From assembly GCA_043798995.1 (NCBI GenBank), contig JAZDOD010000009.1:80015-135117 (forward strand): a stretch of 55,103 nucleotides of DNA. The letters are read 5' to 3'. The DNA is from a bacterium. Lineage in GTDB: Bacteria; Patescibacteriota; Patescibacteriia; JAACEG01; JAGUWE01. The position numbers and the translations under genes are program-made. Within the stretch, counting starts at the first letter, position 1. Each line of letters starts with the position of its first letter. Below are positions 5,606 to 55,052 of the stretch, piece after piece. The notes under the pieces were generated by a model, which was given only the letters and a program-made list of their open reading frames with translations, searched no databases and had not been told where the DNA came from.

Positions 5606-6376
5606 ATGGAAGTGATTATTACTAAAAATTATCAAAAAATGTCCGAGGTTGCTGCTTCGGTTGTGGCTAGGGCTATTGCCAAAAATAAAAAGATTGTTTT
5701 GGCCTTGCCGACCGGCAAAACACCGCGGGAATTGTACCGCTTTTTAATTAAAGCTTATCGGCGCGGCAGTATTAGTTTTAAAAAAGCAGTTGCTTTTAAT
5801 TTAGATGAATACATCGGTTTAAGTCCGGCGGATAAAGCCAGTTATCATTTTTATATGAAAGAATTTTTTTTTAAGTTTATTGATATAAAATCTAAAAATA
5901 TTTTTATTCCCGATGGCCAAGCCCGCCTGCCAAGGCCTGGAGCCAAGGCGACTGGCGGGCAGGCTAAAAATTTAGCCGCCGAATGCCGCCGTTACGAGAG
6001 AGAAATTAAAAAGCAAAATGGTCTTGATTTGGCAATTTTGGGTTTAGGCAAAAATGATCATCTTGGCTTTAACGAGCCGGGCTCAAGTTTTAATTCCAAA
6101 ACCAGAGTAGTTAAATTATCAGAAGCGACGAGAAAAACCAACGCTAAATTTTTTAAAGGCAGAAAAATTCCCAACTTTGCTATTACTATGGGACTTAAAA
6201 CAATTTTTTCCGCCAAAAAGATAATCCTTCTGGCTTCGGGCAGGGAAAAAGCTGAAGCGGTTAAAAAAGCTCTAAAAGCGCCGATTAGTCCTCAAATTCC
6301 AGCTTCAATTTTGCGTCAACACCCCAATGTGATTTTTATTCTTGACCGCGCCGCGGCTTTCAAAATAAAAAAATAA
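5606..6376 (+). CDS. nagB: Glucosamine-6-phosphate deaminase (carries a 14-codon repeat-derived insertion)
   Basis: LALPTGKTP, DEYIGL and GLGKNDHLGFNEPGS motifs. The extra segment ARLPRPGAKATGGQ is encoded by the GC-rich element at 5922-5963. Confidence 0.85.
   Translation: MEVIITKNYQKMSEVAASVVARAIAKNKKIVLALPTGKTPRELYRFLIKAYRRGSISFKKAVAFNLDEYIGLSPADKASYHFYMKEFFFKFIDIKSKNIFIPDGQARLPRPGAKATGGQAKNLAAECRRYEREIKKQNGLDLAILGLGKNDHLGFNEPGSSFNSKTRVVKLSEATRKTNAKFFKGRKIPNFAITMGLKTIFSAKKIILLASGREKAEAVKKALKAPISPQIPASILRQHPNVIFILDRAAAFKIKK
5922..5963 (+). repeat. Family B GC-rich element, 42-nt form, in frame inside nagB
   Basis: The sequence is cccgcctgccaaggcctggagccaaggcgactggcgggcagg. It is 42/42 identical to the reverse complement of 15086-15127 in topA, so both copies have the same orientation relative to the coding strand. 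Confidence 0.9.
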
Positions 6377-9558: not shown

Positions 9559-9638
9559 ATTTTTCTTAATCTTAAATAAAATTGGCTAAATTGTCAAAAG
9601 ACGAGTAATAAGGTATAATATTAGTAGTCAATTTTTTT

Positions 9639-9770
9639 GACATTTGACATTTGCCTGCCCGCCAATTGCCAATGAGTCACTCGGTGATTTTAACAGATAT
9701 TTTAATAAAAAGCTTGATAAAATTTGGAAGCTTTCTTAATTGGCTTTGGCAGGCGGGAGCTTTGAGATTT
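9639..9770. repeat. Family B element, long intergenic form (reverse orientation relative to the nagB copy)
   Basis: GACATTTGACATTTG-CCTGCCCGCCAATTGCC, then ~74 nt of AT-rich filling, then AATTGGCTTTGGCAGGCGGG-AGCTTTG. Both ends match the ends of the 42-nt form (15/17 and 16/17 nt). Confidence 0.8.
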
Positions 9771-9777
9771 TTAAATT

Positions 9778-13144: not shown

Positions 13145-15436
13145 CTATTTTTCTTCTTGTGGTTTTTGCCAGGAAACATAATCGCATTTGGGATAGTTTG
13201 AACAGCCGTAGAAGAAACGGCCGCGTTTGCTGCGCCGGCGGACTACTATTCCCTCCTGGCATTTGGGGCATTTGATTTCCTCGCCCTTTTCATCAGTAAT
13301 TTTAAAATTATTATTTAAATGTTTAGTATTTTTGCAATCGGGATAACCAGAGCAGGCCAAAAATTTGCCAAAACGGCCCGTTTTAACAACCATTGGCTGG
13401 CCGCACTTTTCGCAAATAACATTGGTTTCTTCATTATTTTCATTTTGAGATTTTTTCTCGCCATTTTCACCGGCCCTGGCTAAATCTTGGGTATATTTGC
13501 AGCGCGGAAAATCAGAGCAGGCCAAAAATTTGCCAAAACGGCTCATTCTGGTAACTAAAGGCGAGCCGCATTTGGGACATTTTTCCTCAGTCACCTCACC
13601 CAGGATTTTTTCTTTGGAAAGCGTCTTTTCTTTTTGGGTTAAATTTTTCTTAAAGGGCTCATAGAAATCAGCAATCACCGGCTGCCAGGCAGTTTCTCCC
13701 TGGGCAATTTTATCAAAGTCATCTTCCATTTTAGCCGTAAACTGGTAGTCAACTATTTGAGAAAAATGTTCAGTTAAAAGATCGGTCACTAAGAAAGCAA
13801 CCTCGGTTGGTTTTAAACGGCCGGTTTCTTTTAGGATATAACCGCGATCCTGAATGGTGCTGATAATCGGCGCGTAAGTTGAAGGCCGGCCAATGCCGTA
13901 ACTTTCCAATTTTTTAATGAGTCCCGCTTCTGAATAGCGAGCCGGTGGCTGGGTGAAATGCTGATTATTTTTTATCTCAAGAAGAAGCAAGTCGTCGCCC
14001 GCTTTAACTTGGGGTAGAATCGTTTCACTGGTGGCAGTTTGATAAATTTTTAAAAAGCCCTTAAATTTGATTATCTGGCCATTAGCCAGAAAAATGTAAG
14101 GCGTCTTTTGGGCCTCAATTTCCAAAGCGGTCTGATCAAAAAAAGCATCGGTCATCTGGGAGGCGACTGTCTTTTGCCAGATTAATTGATAGAGTTTAGC
14201 TTGGTTTTTATCTAAATAATTTTTGATTTTTTCCGGCTCCCGGAAAACACTGGTTGGCCTGATTGCTTCATGGGCTTCTTGGGCTAGTTTGGCTTTGGTT
14301 TTATAATATTTTTTGCCCCTGAAGTAGCCGGATTCAAAATTATTTTTAAGGTAACTCGCAACCTCGTCTAAAAATTTTTCTGCCAGATTCAGCGAGTCGG
14401 TTCGCATATAAGTAATTAAACCAACAGAGCCCTCCTCTCCTAATTCAATGCCTTCATAAAGTTGCTGGGCTAACCTCATTGTTTGTTTGGCCGAGAAACC
14501 AAAACGGCGGTTGGCTTCCTGCTGCAGAGTGGAGGTGATAAAAGGCGGCGGGCTTTTGCGGATAACTTCTTTTTTTCTGACATTTAAAACTTGATACGAA
14601 GCATTTTTTAAGTTTTTTAAAATTTCCTGGGACTGAGTCTCATTTTTTATTTCTAACTTATCAATTTTCTGACCGTTGATTTTATCAAGATGCGCGGAAA
14701 AAGATTCTCCGCTGGCTTTTTGGGTTTTGCCATCAAGCGGATCAAAAATAGCGTCAATGGTCCAATATTCATCTTTTTTAAAGGCCTGGATTTCTTTTTC
14801 TCTTTCAACGATTAATTTGACCGCCACCGATTGGACGCGGCCGGCTGAAAGTTTTTTGGTGACTTTACGCCAAAGAAAAGGCGAGAGTTCATAGCCGACT
14901 AAGCGGTCTAAAATGCGCCGGGCTTGCTGGGAATCAACTAAATTCAAATTAAGATCGCGCGGTTCTTTTAAGGCATTGTCAATCGCTTCTTTGGTAATTT
15001 CATGAAAAACAATACGTTCTACCTTACTTTTGACTTTTGCCTGCCCCGTAGCTCCGCCAGTTGGCGGATGCTTCGGGGACTTTTGCCTGCCCGCCAGTCG
15101 CCTTGGCTCCAGGCCTTGGCAGGCGGGACTTTTGACCTCATTCAAGCCCAAGGCTTGGGTGAGGTGCCAGGCAATAGCTTCGCCTTCGCGATCTTCATCG
15201 GTGGCTAGAATTATTTTATCGGCTGATTTCAGTTGAGCCTTTAAATCTTTGACAACTTTTTTAGCTTTGCCGGGGATAATATAATGAGGCGCAAAATTGT
15301 TTTCAATCTCAATACCCATTTTGTTTTTAGGCAAATCTCGGACATGGCCGTAGGAAGAAGCGACCTGATAATTTTTATCCAAAAATTTGGCAATAGTTTT
15401 GGCTTTGGTTGGCGATTCAACGATAACGAGATTCAT
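13145..15436 (-). CDS. topA: DNA topoisomerase I with C-terminal zinc ribbons (carries a 34-codon repeat-derived insertion)
   Basis: TOPRIM start MNLVIVESPTKAKTI and DEDREGEAIAWH. Several CPKCG/CEKCG zinc ribbons. The extra segment SPACQGLEPRRLAGRQKSPKHPPTGGATGQAKVK lies between ...GLNEVK and SKVERIVFHEITK. Confidence 0.9.
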   Translation of the reverse strand: MNLVIVESPTKAKTIAKFLDKNYQVASSYGHVRDLPKNKMGIEIENNFAPHYIIPGKAKKVVKDLKAQLKSADKIILATDEDREGEAIAWHLTQALGLNEVKSPACQGLEPRRLAGRQKSPKHPPTGGATGQAKVKSKVERIVFHEITKEAIDNALKEPRDLNLNLVDSQQARRILDRLVGYELSPFLWRKVTKKLSAGRVQSVAVKLIVEREKEIQAFKKDEYWTIDAIFDPLDGKTQKASGESFSAHLDKINGQKIDKLEIKNETQSQEILKNLKNASYQVLNVRKKEVIRKSPPPFITSTLQQEANRRFGFSAKQTMRLAQQLYEGIELGEEGSVGLITYMRTDSLNLAEKFLDEVASYLKNNFESGYFRGKKYYKTKAKLAQEAHEAIRPTSVFREPEKIKNYLDKNQAKLYQLIWQKTVASQMTDAFFDQTALEIEAQKTPYIFLANGQIIKFKGFLKIYQTATSETILPQVKAGDDLLLLEIKNNQHFTQPPARYSEAGLIKKLESYGIGRPSTYAPIISTIQDRGYILKETGRLKPTEVAFLVTDLLTEHFSQIVDYQFTAKMEDDFDKIAQGETAWQPVIADFYEPFKKNLTQKEKTLSKEKILGEVTEEKCPKCGSPLVTRMSRFGKFLACSDFPRCKYTQDLARAGENGEKKSQNENNEETNVICEKCGQPMVVKTGRFGKFLACSGYPDCKNTKHLNNNFKITDEKGEEIKCPKCQEGIVVRRRSKRGRFFYGCSNYPKCDYVSWQKPQEEK
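15026..15134 (-). repeat. Composite GC-rich insertion in topA: [ACTTTTG]x2 - 39-nt hairpin - [ACTTTTG] - 42-nt family B element - [ACTTTTG]
   Basis: 15040-15078 is CCTGCC-CCGTAGC-TCCGCCA-GT-TGGCGGA-TGCTT-CGGGG. 15086-15127 is the exact reverse complement of 5922-5963. The net added length is 102 nt (34 codons). Confidence 0.9.
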
Positions 15437-20543: not shown

Positions 20544-20579
20544 CTTTGTGCCAAATTGGGCACATAGCTCAGCTGGTTA

Positions 20580-20623
20580 CCCGCCCGACTCGCTGCAGAC
20601 GCAGTTGCGTCGAAGCGGGCGGG
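20580..20623 (+). repeat. 44-nt hairpin block in the D loop (between positions 21 and 22) of the outer tRNA-Val
   Basis: CCCGCCCG-ACTCGC-TGC-AGAC-GCA-GTTGCGTCGAAG-CGGGCGGG, with an 8-bp perfect closing stem. Confidence 0.8.
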
Positions 20624-20639
20624 GAGCGCTACATTCACA

Positions 20640-20743
20640 CCCGCCTGCCTTGGCCGTTTAGCTCAGCTGGTTAGAGCGCTTCGTTCACATCGAAGAGGTC
20701 GAAGGTTCAAATCCTTCAACGGTCATAGTTTTAGGCGGGCAGG
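20640..20743 (+). repeat. 104-nt family B element in the anticodon loop of the outer tRNA-Val, carrying a complete tRNA
   Basis: CCCGCCTGCC-TT-[tRNA 20652-20725]-TAGTTTTA-GGCGGGCAGG. The termini pair over 10 positions with one C.A mismatch and one U.G wobble. Confidence 0.85.
20652..20725 (+). tRNA. tRNA-Val (anticodon CAC), nested
   Basis: GGCCGTT-TA-GCTC-AGCTGGTTA-GAGC-G-CTTCG-TTCACAT-CGAAG-AGGTC-GAAGG-TTCAAAT-CCTTC-AACGGTC-A. Confidence 0.95.
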
Positions 20744-20761
20744 TTGTAGAGGTCTCTGGTT

Positions 20762-20792
20762 TGACCCTGCGGGTCATCTCCCGTAGGGATGA
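20762..20792 (+). repeat. 31-nt double mini-hairpin block in the T loop (between positions 55 and 56) of the outer tRNA-Val
   Basis: TGACCC-TGC-GGGTCA followed by TCTCCC-GTA-GGGATGA. Removing it restores the T loop TTCAAGT. Confidence 0.7.
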
Positions 20793-20878
20793 CAAGTCCA
20801 GATGTGCCCATAAAGATGTTTGGCACTATTTAAGAATTTCATACTTAAAAGATAAAAATCAAATCAATCTTTAGCTGG

Positions 20879-44072: not shown

Positions 44073-44100
44073 GTTAAAAGTCAAAAGTGACAGCCTTATT

Positions 44101-54839: not shown

Positions 54840-54844
54840 GTTAA

Positions 54845-54881
54845 TCGCAACCGACATGTACTGCCATTATACTATAGCCCA
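54845..54881 (-). other. tRNA-like 5' fragment (acceptor strand + D arm + anticodon-loop-like TTGCG), truncated at the end of the RM island
   Basis: The - strand reads TGGGCTA-TA-GTAT-AATGGCA-GTAC-A-TGTCG-GTTGCGA. I found no matching 3' half. Confidence 0.4.
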
Positions 54882-54916
54882 TTGAAAAGGTGGGCCGGGT
54901 CCAAGTGCTCGCGTTT

Positions 54917-55024
54917 CGCCCGACTGCCTTGACTATCGGGGTGCGGAGAATTGAACTCCGGCCACATGCACCCCATGCACGCGTACTACCGTTATACTAC
55001 ACCCCGGCAGTCAAGGCGGGCGGG
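54917..55024 (-). repeat. GC clamp enclosing tRNA-Pro (arms CCCGCCCGCCTTGACTGC / TAGTCAAGGCAGTCGGGCG)
   Basis: The arms at 55024-55007 and 54935-54917 pair as GCCTTGACT/AGTCAAGGC, a 4-nt bulge, then CGCCC/GGGCG. The CCCGCCCG terminus is shared with 20580-20623. Confidence 0.8.
54936..55006 (-). tRNA. tRNA-Pro (anticodon GGG)
   Basis: CGGGGTG-TA-GTAT-AACGGTA-GTAC-G-CGTGC-ATGGGGT-GCATG-TGGC-CGGAG-TTCAATT-CTCCG-CACCCCG-A. Confidence 0.9.
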
Positions 55025-55047
55025 CACTACCGTTACGCTACACCCCG
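55025..55047 (-). other. tRNA-like 5' fragment duplicating the acceptor strand + D arm of tRNA-Pro
   Basis: CGGGGTGTAGCGTAACGGTAGTG(C) versus CGGGGTGTAGTATAACGGTAGTAC is 21/24 identical, with compensatory changes at D-stem pair 11:24. Confidence 0.5.
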
Positions 55048-55052
55048 AAATT

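Follow-up and report, generated by a model that had tools for sequence, protein, structure and literature searches.

Hairpin elements in the window and their empty sites

The DNA analyzed (the window; 55,103 nucleotides, positions 80,015 to 135,117 of contig JAZDOD010000009.1, assembly GCA_043798995.1, hereafter genome G000) comes from an ultra-small groundwater bacterium of the class Patescibacteriia. Four copies of a small GC-clamped hairpin element, called family B, are found in the window. All are bounded by the 10-nt arms CCCGCCTGCC and GGCGGGCAGG, and reside at 5922-5963 (plus strand), 9654-9757 (minus), 15086-15127 (minus) and 20640-20743 (plus). Each arm occurs exactly four times, always as part of a pair, whereas in 100 dinucleotide shuffles the mean expectation was 0.08 and 0.06, and no shuffle reached four. 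The comparison with chance expectation confirms the observation made in the initial annotation that paired GC-rich termini enclose different fillings at four loci. Genome-wide, 7 and 14 exact arms are present, and about 16 distinct elements, 30-132 nt in size, could be read out of 19 rows listed at two or fewer arm mismatches.

The 104-nt element at 9654-9757 (the interval 9639-9770 given initially includes flanking heptads) carries 84 nt of AT-rich DNA between the arms, or about 70 nt if the conserved subterminal bases are counted as terminus. It is located downstream of a promoter-like site (9591-9619, 11 of 12 positions) and 20 nt upstream of parA. The conservation of subterminal bases between short and long forms holds, four long copies sharing 20 nt on the left and 18 nt on the right. 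The copies at 5922-5963 and 15086-15127 are 42 nt long, with 22 nt between the arms, and the copy at 20640-20743 holds a complete tRNA-Val(CAC) gene at 20651-20726. In predicted folds the termini are paired in all forms, with z-scores of -3.8 and -4.3 for the long form, -4.6 for the tRNA form and -2.0 for the short form. The C.A mismatch and the G.U wobble noted within the paired arms are real and strictly kept: in five genomes holding 61 hits of the asymmetric pair, the perfectly complementary pair has no hits.

Two heptads (ACATTTG) at 9640-9653 precede the element upstream of parA, and two more, not identical to the former, follow at 9758-9771. Heptads ACTTTTG are found in topA at 15026-15039, 15079-15085 and 15128-15134, and a solo pair with no element at 44076-44092. 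Heptads had been listed as flanking features of the elements, but are not part of them. In G001, a genome of the same genus searched for empty sites, the same four-heptad arrays stand uninterrupted, and G000 has 74 such AT-rich, period-7 arrays. G001 aligns through both the parA-upstream and the topA sites, lacking exactly the 104-nt element at the former, which sits between the second and third heptad of its array, and 39-nt and 42-nt elements at the latter, with no target duplication seen in the filled-versus-empty alignments. The reading of the heptads as excision footprints or target duplications is not favored, because tRNA insertions show no duplication and the heptads flanking the parA element differ from each other, yet it is not excluded for the heptad sites. 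The 39-nt hairpin at 15040-15078 (minus strand; z-score -5.3) belongs to another family with CCCCG...CGGGG arms, lies in the same topA heptad array as the 42-nt copy, and is in frame in topA. Long forms of family B also sit inside a palindromic repeat of roughly 90 nt which has uninterrupted paralogues.

The short form is read in frame in four proteins: NagB, TopA, Tgt and a glycosyltransferase. In nagB (5606-6376) it reads as the 14 residues ARLPRPGAKATGGQ; in topA (13145-15436, minus strand) as PACQGLEPRRLAGR, in a length-variable loop of the TOPRIM region, a segment missing in other Patescibacteria TopA proteins. All four coding copies are 42 nt long and lie in loop or low-complexity segments. 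The multiple-of-three argument is weak, as the fifth short copy, which is intergenic, is also 42 nt long, and on inspection all six frames of the element appear open. A 42-nt copy in another genome is in frame in an ORF of 229 aa. The 41-nt copies in genome G006 all lie in one larger intergenic repeat, and say nothing about frame. No short forms occur in five genomes rich in long and tRNA forms.

tRNA cassettes nested in tRNA genes

The tRNA-Val copy, taken initially as one interchangeable cargo among others, lies in the anticodon loop (37/38) of a second, disrupted tRNA-Val(CAC) gene (20558-20810, plus strand), the pieces of which are at 20558-20579, 20624-20639, 20744-20764 and about 20797-20810. 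This outer gene carries two more insertions: a 44-nt hairpin with CCCGCCCG...CGGGCGGG arms at 20580-20623, at the 3' end of the D-loop (z-score -3.7), and about 32 nt at 20765-20796, in the T-loop, nearly identical to an insert in the T-loop of the outer tRNA-Ile on another contig (C2). Upon removal of the three insertions, ARAGORN calls tRNA-Val(CAC), in 18 of 25 boundary variants. The outer Thr and Trp genes are called after one excision, the outer Ile after two. A cassette with CCCGCCCG arms, variant arms with two mismatches also noted initially, is found at 54919-55024 (minus strand); it holds tRNA-Pro(GGG) at 54936-55006, and is preceded on the minus strand (55025-55048) by the 5' part of an outer tRNA-Pro, where G001 has a simple tRNA-Pro(GGG) at the same upstream junction. 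The inner genes are the only intact Val(CAC), Thr(CGT), Trp, Ile(GAT) and Pro(GGG) genes in the assembly. Rfam models at gathering score detect only the four tRNAs in the window.

The same clamp, with 70-130 nt of cargo, was monitored in 401 genomes of the class, and found in 79; the reversed-pattern control matched none. Of 33 elements examined in 30 loci, 21 hold a tRNA, and the tRNA-bearing form is thus the commonest. Flanks resemble the halves of the inner tRNA, in the same orientation, in 24 of 25 cases, and in 13 of 25 match it better than any inner tRNA of another anticodon. Insertions are at the end of the D-loop in 10 cases, in the anticodon loop in 12 as scored by script and in one more by eye (the Gly locus of G001, where the script estimate failed on a short flank), and elsewhere in two. 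The tRNA lies in reverse orientation relative to the asymmetric arms in 18 and forward in 7 of the 25. In most class members the arms extend the acceptor stem of the enclosed tRNA by about 17 bp, with only 2-10 nt between them, and some short-form interiors contain, as judged by eye, the last bases of a tRNA 3' end. Most tRNAs in these genomes lack the clamp. No known RNA family was found in nine loci with AT-rich cargo.

G000 and G001 differ at Val, Thr, Leu, Pro and Arg loci, so turnover is fast. At syntenic loci G001 has simple Leu(CAG), Thr(CGT) and Pro(GGG) genes where G000 has nests; the outer Leu fragment of G000 is the orthologue of the intact gene of G001, and its 3' part is already deleted. 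The Val gene of G001 resembles the outer gene of G000 (63 of 76) more than the inner one (58 of 77), and its working Trp gene resembles the outer Trp of G000 (58 of 74), while the outer Trp of G001 is truncated. In genome G226 the Thr type which is outer in G000 is the inner one. In one genus, the outer Pro(CGG) is pristine in one genome and further interrupted in the other (loci L033 and L032, respectively).

Hidden tRNA genes were sought in G000, in which 25 tRNAs are detectable, against 26-45 in relatives. Removing each of about 1,000 GC-rich hairpins one at a time (25,550 variants) gave no new ARAGORN call except an edge effect at tRNA-Met. ARAGORN with long introns and a lowered threshold gave mostly noise (178 calls), and a T-arm pattern and nhmmer half-tRNA profiles only a few fragments. 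BLAST with the 5' and 3' halves of 37 tRNAs from G001 and two other relatives (G002 and G003), with anticodons missing in G000, found only cross-hits to known genes, and no interrupted Phe, Lys, Glu or Asn genes. The roughly 20 missing tRNAs are therefore probably unassembled. One locus (contig C3, 458-656, Gly-TCC-like) has a clamp arm but no intact inner tRNA, and no Gly(TCC) gene is in the assembly; a tmRNA-like 3' end at 623-653 of this contig was rejected as too weak (15 bits against a gathering score of 47). Eleven viral contigs match the arm pattern, but all have 53-72% G+C and none has tRNA cargo, and these are chance matches.

Origin and persistence of the elements

The initial interpretation, a conserved clamp with interchangeable cargo, is partly supported: it is correct and generalizes, the same arms bounding 22-nt, roughly 84-nt AT-rich and tRNA cargos in G000 and across the class, but the heptads are extraneous, the nesting of the tRNA copy was missed, and the elements are DNA insertions with empty sites. 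At a probability of about 0.6, family B is best viewed as a non-autonomous mobile DNA element with imperfect terminal inverted repeats (the 10-nt clamp plus about 6-10 conserved subterminal bases), folding as a single strand into a hairpin closed flush at the ends of the element, the tRNA-bearing form of which survives in tRNA genes because it replaces what it breaks. The comparisons show precise entry without target duplication or loss, subject to the reservation on heptad sites; entry between AT-rich heptads, inside other palindromic repeats, and at the 3' end of the D-loop or in the anticodon loop of tRNA genes; coding copies readable in long open frames; co-orientation of inner and outer tRNAs; and further insertions and deletions in outer genes.

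The role of selection, and the translation, transcription and processing of the copies, are inferred from sequence alone. In this view, only in-frame 42-nt copies in tolerant surface loops persist in proteins, and are translated, and only copies whose cargo is a working tRNA of the same identity persist in single-copy tRNA genes. Co-orientation suggests that the inner tRNA is transcribed from the promoter of the host gene and released by RNase P/Z, the clamp acting like a processing stem. Such a cassette would replace the gene it breaks and could not then be lost, and the outer gene, a relic, would collect hairpin insertions and deletions, until the inner gene is the native one and can be invaded again. 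The strictly kept asymmetry of the arms points to recognition of the ends by a protein, as yet unidentified, rather than mere base pairing, and is a concrete handle for finding the enzyme. Spread between strains by homologous recombination through the conserved tRNA halves is a possible route.

Not all data fit this view easily. Neither Y1 (PF01797) nor IS110 (PF01548) transposases, the two families searched, are present in G000, which is 94.5% complete and has one tyrosine recombinase and one reverse transcriptase, DGR-like as judged from its motif; mobility therefore rests on comparison alone. The outer tRNAs are surprisingly intact: upon clean removal of the palindromes all four in G000 are still called as cognate tRNAs, as are called 9 of 21 elsewhere (three with the cognate anticodon, one miscalled, five tRNA-like with the anticodon unresolved), which is also what a spliced, functional gene would look like. 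At most one of 25 tRNA cassettes was seen at a neutral site; survivorship can explain this, but active targeting explains it better. How the same arms came to bound at least 15 different tRNA identities is unexplained, and the Gly-TCC-like locus on contig C3, with a clamp arm but no intact inner tRNA, also counts against this view.

If the main reading holds, essential single-copy tRNA genes in streamlined bacteria are not static, but repeatedly broken and replaced by 100-nt cassettes, two species of one genus already differing at five or more tRNA loci. Family B would be a minimal selfish element surviving by compensating for its own damage, would help explain why so few tRNAs are reported in some of these genomes and why assemblies break at tRNA loci, and would provide a bacterial, sequence-tractable case for the old question of where interrupted and split tRNA genes come from. 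Nested and relic tRNAs, and 14-residue in-frame inserts in housekeeping proteins, should be expected in annotations of this class.

A more speculative possibility, only tentatively entertained, is that the clamp marks a dedicated tRNA-gene replacement system, cassettes actively homing into the exposed loops of the cognate tRNA gene, either as DNA, through a structure-specific recombinase, or as RNA, through reverse insertion and copying back. By supplying the only working copy, they would become indispensable, in a gene-drive-like addiction cycle turning over the tRNA set of a whole bacterial class, and would be a living bacterial model for how interrupted and split tRNA genes arise.

It is rather unlikely that the arms are the folded-strand recombination site of a site-specific system resembling integron attC cassettes, possibly run in G000 by the single tyrosine recombinase, in which case cognate targeting would be active. 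Insertion is precise and without duplication, tRNA cassettes are hardly found outside tRNA genes, and the conserved mismatch and wobble recall the extrahelical bases which mark the recombined strand of attC. The recombinase gene is about 1.2 kb from a long-form copy, but may well encode the ordinary Xer protein. No common target motif exists among tRNA loops, heptad arrays and nagB, and the cargo lies inside the hairpin, not beside it as in integron cassettes.

Slightly less likely, the insertions could be intron-like, cut out of the RNA by some structure-specific nuclease, for example RNase III at the clamp, and the halves ligated, the outer tRNAs being functional and the inner tRNA an intron-encoded second gene. 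In line with this, outer genes fold as tRNAs upon excision, this genus shows only 25 detectable tRNAs, and insertion points are exposed loops of a folded tRNA, recurring at the same position for the same tRNA type in distant genomes (Val 37/38, Thr(CGT) 35/36, Gly(TCC) 35/36). The outer Thr genes of G000 and genome G057 also differ by what appears by eye a compensatory change in the anticodon stem. In contrast, profile searches of G000, in which controls were detected, found neither a splicing endonuclease (PF01974) nor an RtcB ligase (PF01139), and the termini pair flush to the last base, with no 3-nt bulges and no bulge-helix-bulge. Every anticodon-loop case examined carries an intact replacement tRNA, which a spliced intron would not need, outer genes such as Leu(CAG) and Trp lose parts, coding copies sit only in tolerant loops, as expected if translated, and BLAST with Phe, Lys, Glu and Asn tRNA halves of relatives found no hidden interrupted genes in this assembly.

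That the clamp is a host-beneficial processing or expression signal for tRNA precursors, like the stems flanking rRNAs, the non-tRNA copies being decayed remnants, is supported by the extension of the acceptor stem and the tRNA 3' ends in some short forms, but is improbable, given the copies in protein genes and in a 5' leader, with clean empty sites in G001, the many tRNAs lacking the clamp, and the occurrence of the tRNA in either orientation relative to the arms. Although contigs of G000 and G001 often end at these loci, chance similarity or misassembly at a short GC repeat can be dismissed given the excess over expectation, the 79 independent genomes, and the nests within long contigs of nearly closed genomes, ten bases presumably being too short to mislead an assembler.

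Relation to known elements

A literature survey, largely at the level of abstracts, found no description of nested or hairpin-interrupted tRNA genes in these bacteria, nor of an element of this structure, in line with the initial annotation. Rickettsia palindromic elements, like family B at tolerant sites in nagB, topA, tgt and the glycosyltransferase gene, insert in frame into unrelated protein-coding genes, and are kept as extra peptide segments (PMC10969869). They are however about 150 bp long according to that review, the main text of which does not mention tRNA, and the host lineages are unrelated. MITEs and REP or REPIN elements are short, non-coding and multi-copy, feature terminal inverted repeats or GC-rich imperfect palindromes, and nest within one another. 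Family B shares small size, terminal inverted repeats and copy number, but no target-site duplication was seen in the filled-versus-empty alignments and tRNA loops are restored exactly upon its removal, the RAYT-type (Y1) gene is missing in G000, four of five short copies are inside ORFs and others inside tRNA genes, and the arms differ at two fixed positions across a whole class.

In filamentous cyanobacteria, very small hairpin-forming repeats insert into one another and into conserved RNA genes, in genomes also rich in heptanucleotide tandem repeats; sequences and hosts differ, and these repeats are not known to carry tRNAs or to replace genes. Archaeal tRNA genes may be interrupted in the D-loop, anticodon loop and T-loop, up to three times per gene, with GC-rich pairing holding the pieces together, and transposition has been proposed as the source of such introns. 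A review is available (PMC4090602). Here the host is a bacterium, and the insert contains a full replacement tRNA. Group I introns of bacterial tRNA anticodon loops have a catalytic core of at least about 200 nt, whereas the inserts are 42-132 nt long, and no Rfam intron model was matched in the window.

Phages and ICEs which target tRNA genes often enter the anticodon or T-loop, and keep the cell alive by bringing a copy of the displaced tRNA sequence. Those elements are kilobases long, encode an integrase, bring only the 3' part of the tRNA and leave direct repeats. The family B cassette is about 100-130 nt long and holds nothing but a complete tRNA, the one tyrosine recombinase of G000 is on another contig, no direct repeats are seen at the junctions, and both halves of the old gene are left around the element.

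Family B arms in the window and in the host genome

The two arms CCCGCCTGCC and GGCGGGCAGG occur four times each in the 55-kb window and always as a pair, at 5922-5963 (+), 9654-9757 (-), 15086-15127 (-) and 20640-20743 (+). Dinucleotide shuffles gave means of 0.08 and 0.06 for the two arms, and none of 100 shuffles reached four. The observation made in the initial annotation is therefore confirmed. The element upstream of parA is 104 nt long, the interval 9639-9770 assigned to it in the initial annotation including the flanking heptads. The short copies measure 42 nt, and the fourth copy encloses tRNA-Val(CAC) at 20651-20726. Four long copies from this genome and its congener share 20 nt on the left and 18 nt on the right around a variable AT-rich interior. 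All forms fold with their ends paired, with z-scores ranging from -2.0 to -4.6. The arms are not exact complements, and the folded form has one C.A mismatch and one G.U wobble, as initially described.

The window lies in a 765-kb assembly of 12 contigs (hereafter G000; contigs are denoted by C), with a per-contig G+C of 0.36-0.39 and a completeness of 94.5%. The SSU rRNA is bacterial, and the nearest named TopA relatives are Patescibacteria MAGs, including Giovannonibacteria and Harrisonbacteria. ARAGORN and Infernal detected only 25 tRNAs in G000, none for Phe, Lys, Glu or Asn. The same number was found in the same-genus genome G001, whereas 13 other relatives have 26-45. BLAST searches with tRNA halves of relatives revealed no hidden copies in G000. 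Several contigs start or end at nested tRNA loci, and these loci thus probably break assemblies.

A genome census allowing 2 or fewer arm mismatches lists 19 rows, which were read as about 16 elements, namely five 42-nt copies, four 30-nt mini-forms, three long forms and four tRNA cassettes (Thr, Trp, Val and Pro). A fifth cassette, Ile, appears in the census only as a truncated 42-nt match, and was recognized by inspection of the locus.

Insertion into heptad arrays and protein-coding genes

The G001 genome aligns through both sites, and lacks exactly the 104-nt element upstream of parA, as well as the 39-nt and 42-nt elements in topA. Nothing is duplicated or lost. Four uninterrupted tandem heptads are found in G001 at each place, and in the window the elements sit between heptads, after TTTG. 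The heptads are therefore a pre-existing array and not part of the element. AT-rich period-7 arrays of this type are common, G000 featuring 74 of them (e.g., window 9640-9653, 15026-15039 and 44076-44092; C1:153467-153499). By our count, four or five elements of this or a related family lie in such arrays, and clamp elements with AT-rich cargo sit in such arrays in several other genomes too. Some arrays are translated inside ORFs as K/S/Q/N-rich segments, as in the Tgt-like protein and in TopA. TopA proteins of five other Patescibacteria have only a few residues at the insertion point. Two long copies also lie at one fixed point inside a roughly 90-nt palindromic repeat which has uninterrupted paralogues. 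At least 5 copies of this repeat were found (C1:22170-22420, C10:20180-20330, C7:72897-72989, C1:105941-106030, C1:33881-33961), two of which are split at the same central point by a long-form family B element. The element at 9654-9757 lies downstream of a strong promoter-like site at 9591-9619 (TTGTCA, 17 nt, TATAAT; 11 of 12 matches), conserved in G001. It is therefore probably located in the 5' leader of parA, where its hairpin could affect expression.

Four of the five 42-nt copies lie in frame in long ORFs, and would be read as ARLPRPGAKATGGQ in NagB and PACQGLEPRRLAGR in TopA, the other two residing in a Tgt-like protein and in a glycosyltransferase. A 42-nt copy in another genome is in frame in a 229-aa ORF. 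All of these sit in loops or heptad-encoded low-complexity stretches. This is what selection at the protein level would leave, and what is reported for Rickettsia palindromic elements (PMC10969869).

Nested tRNA genes in the genome and in the class

The cassette at 20640-20743 is surrounded by the pieces of a second tRNA-Val(CAC), spanning 20558-20810, and sits between positions 37 and 38 of its anticodon loop. A 44-nt hairpin with CCCGCCCG arms is found at the end of the D-loop of the outer gene, and an insert of roughly 32 nt in its T-loop. Upon removal of the three inserts, ARAGORN calls tRNA-Val(CAC) in 18 of 25 boundary variants. The T-loop insert (window 20765-20796) has a counterpart at the same T-loop position in the outer tRNA-Ile (C2:23754-23784). 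This insert, of roughly 31 nt and with two overlapping, pseudoknot-like stem options, looks like a third insertion family that prefers T-loops. The initial interpretation of the elements is partly supported. The description as a conserved clamp with interchangeable cargo is correct, but the tRNA copy is not simply cargo, being a gene inside a gene.

The same pattern recurs in G000. Thr(CGT), Trp and Ile(GAT) are nested in the anticodon loops of cognate outer genes, which are called after one, one and two excisions, respectively. Pro(GGG) at the end of the window, Arg(TCG), Arg(CCT), Leu(CAG), Pro(CGG) and Gln(CTG) carry outer fragments and other GC clamps. The inner genes are the only intact genes for those anticodons in the assembly. 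Further tRNA-Pro-like 5' fragments lie downstream of the Pro(GGG) nest (window 54840-54918, minus strand), which suggests several stacked layers of replacement at this locus. At C3:458-656, a Gly(TCC)-like 3' half is preceded by a right clamp arm, but both the left arm and an inner tRNA are missing. No intact tRNA-Gly(TCC) is in the assembly, while G001 has the intact nested version, and Rfam gives at this locus only a weak tmRNA-like hit.

The arm pair, with 70-130 nt between the arms, occurs in 79 of 401 sampled genomes of the class, and the reversed-pattern control in none. In the 30 loci retrieved, 21 of 33 elements hold a tRNA. With the addition of three nests from G000 and one from G001, 25 cases were analyzed. 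The flanks resemble the halves of the inner tRNA, in the same orientation, in 24 of 25 cases, and in 13 of 25 they match it better than any inner tRNA of another anticodon. ARAGORN recognizes the outer gene after clean excision in 9 of 21 cases (3 with the cognate anticodon, 1 miscalled as Lys, and 5 as tRNA-like with the anticodon unresolved). Insertion points fall into two hot spots, the 3' end of the D-loop (10 cases, all with the clamp in the same orientation relative to the tRNA), and anticodon-loop positions 34-38 (12 cases scored automatically, plus G001 Gly assigned by eye). Two cases lie elsewhere. The same tRNA type is hit at the same position in distant genomes. One locus, L037 in genome G152, is a triple nest, made up by a tRNA-Arg(CCT) cassette inside the remains of a second clamp-bounded tRNA inside a third tRNA-like gene. 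The perfectly complementary arm pair has no hit in five genomes that hold 61 hits of the asymmetric pair. The two ends are therefore kept different, which suggests recognition by a protein. Short forms are rarer, being found in 5 of 41 relatives and in none of five genomes rich in the other forms.

Turnover, maintenance and comparison with other elements

The 25 tRNA sites of G001 were compared with G000. Downstream of an identical tRNA-Leu(GAG) and spacer, G001 has a simple tRNA-Leu(CAG). G000 keeps the first 15 nt of that gene, followed by a hairpin, a few more native bases, a cassette arm and a different tRNA-Leu(CAG), the native 3' part being gone. At Pro(GGG) the two genomes share the same upstream junction, but the gene is simple in G001, whereas G000 has 41 extra bases of outer gene plus arm. 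Thr(CGT) is simple in G001 at a syntenic site. Arg(CCT) is also simple in G001, and by eye resembles the inner gene of G000. The Val gene of G001 is closer to the outer (63 of 76) than to the inner (58 of 77) gene of G000, and the working Trp gene of G001, itself nested with a different clamp, is closest to the outer gene of G000 (58 of 74). In G226, another genome analyzed, the Thr type that is outer in G000 and G057 is the inner one. In one other genus the outer Pro(CGG) is pristine in one genome and further interrupted in its congener. Together these data point to repeated cycles of invasion, replacement, relic decay and relic loss.

The analysis shows that DNA insertion is precise and without duplication, that coding copies lie in long open frames and are readable in frame, that nesting is co-oriented and involves tRNAs of the same identity, that turnover is rapid and that the asymmetric ends are fixed. 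The rest is inference. In the most likely view, a tRNA-bearing cassette would survive in a single-copy tRNA gene because it replaces the gene, co-orientation would let it use the host promoter, RNase P and Z would release the inner tRNA, with the clamp acting like a processing stem, and the outer gene would be a relic. No Y1 or IS110 transposase was found in G000, which encodes one tyrosine recombinase and one 342-aa reverse transcriptase (C6:1008-2036), with a GxxxSQ-type motif typical of diversity-generating retroelements. Homologous recombination through the conserved tRNA halves could spread nests between strains, but this is speculation.

Two facts fit an actively homing or an intron-like system better than pure survivorship. 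The outer genes are remarkably intact once the palindromes are removed, and no tRNA cassette was seen at a neutral site. Splicing remains possible, but is disfavored by the lack of an archaeal-type endonuclease and of RtcB in G000, by the flush hairpins, devoid of bulges, by the presence of a replacement gene in every anticodon-loop case, by the loss of parts from outer genes, and by the failure to find hidden interrupted genes for the missing tRNAs.

The element works like a palindromic MITE or RPE in proteins, and like a tRNA-targeting integrative element in tRNA genes. It differs from MITEs because there is no duplication, and from REPINs because there is no RAYT and copies are not extragenic. 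It also lacks the defining features of BHB introns, group I introns and integrase-borne elements. No description of it was found in the literature, and a 2024 MITE review does not mention tRNA in its main text (PMC10969869). A further repeat, a 30-nt GC-rich double hairpin (TCCGCC...GGCGGA type), occurs in many copies in G000 (e.g., C4:1790-1819, C1:124596-124625, C1:185505-185534), some of which reside inside relic tRNA genes (outer Arg on C10 and C2).
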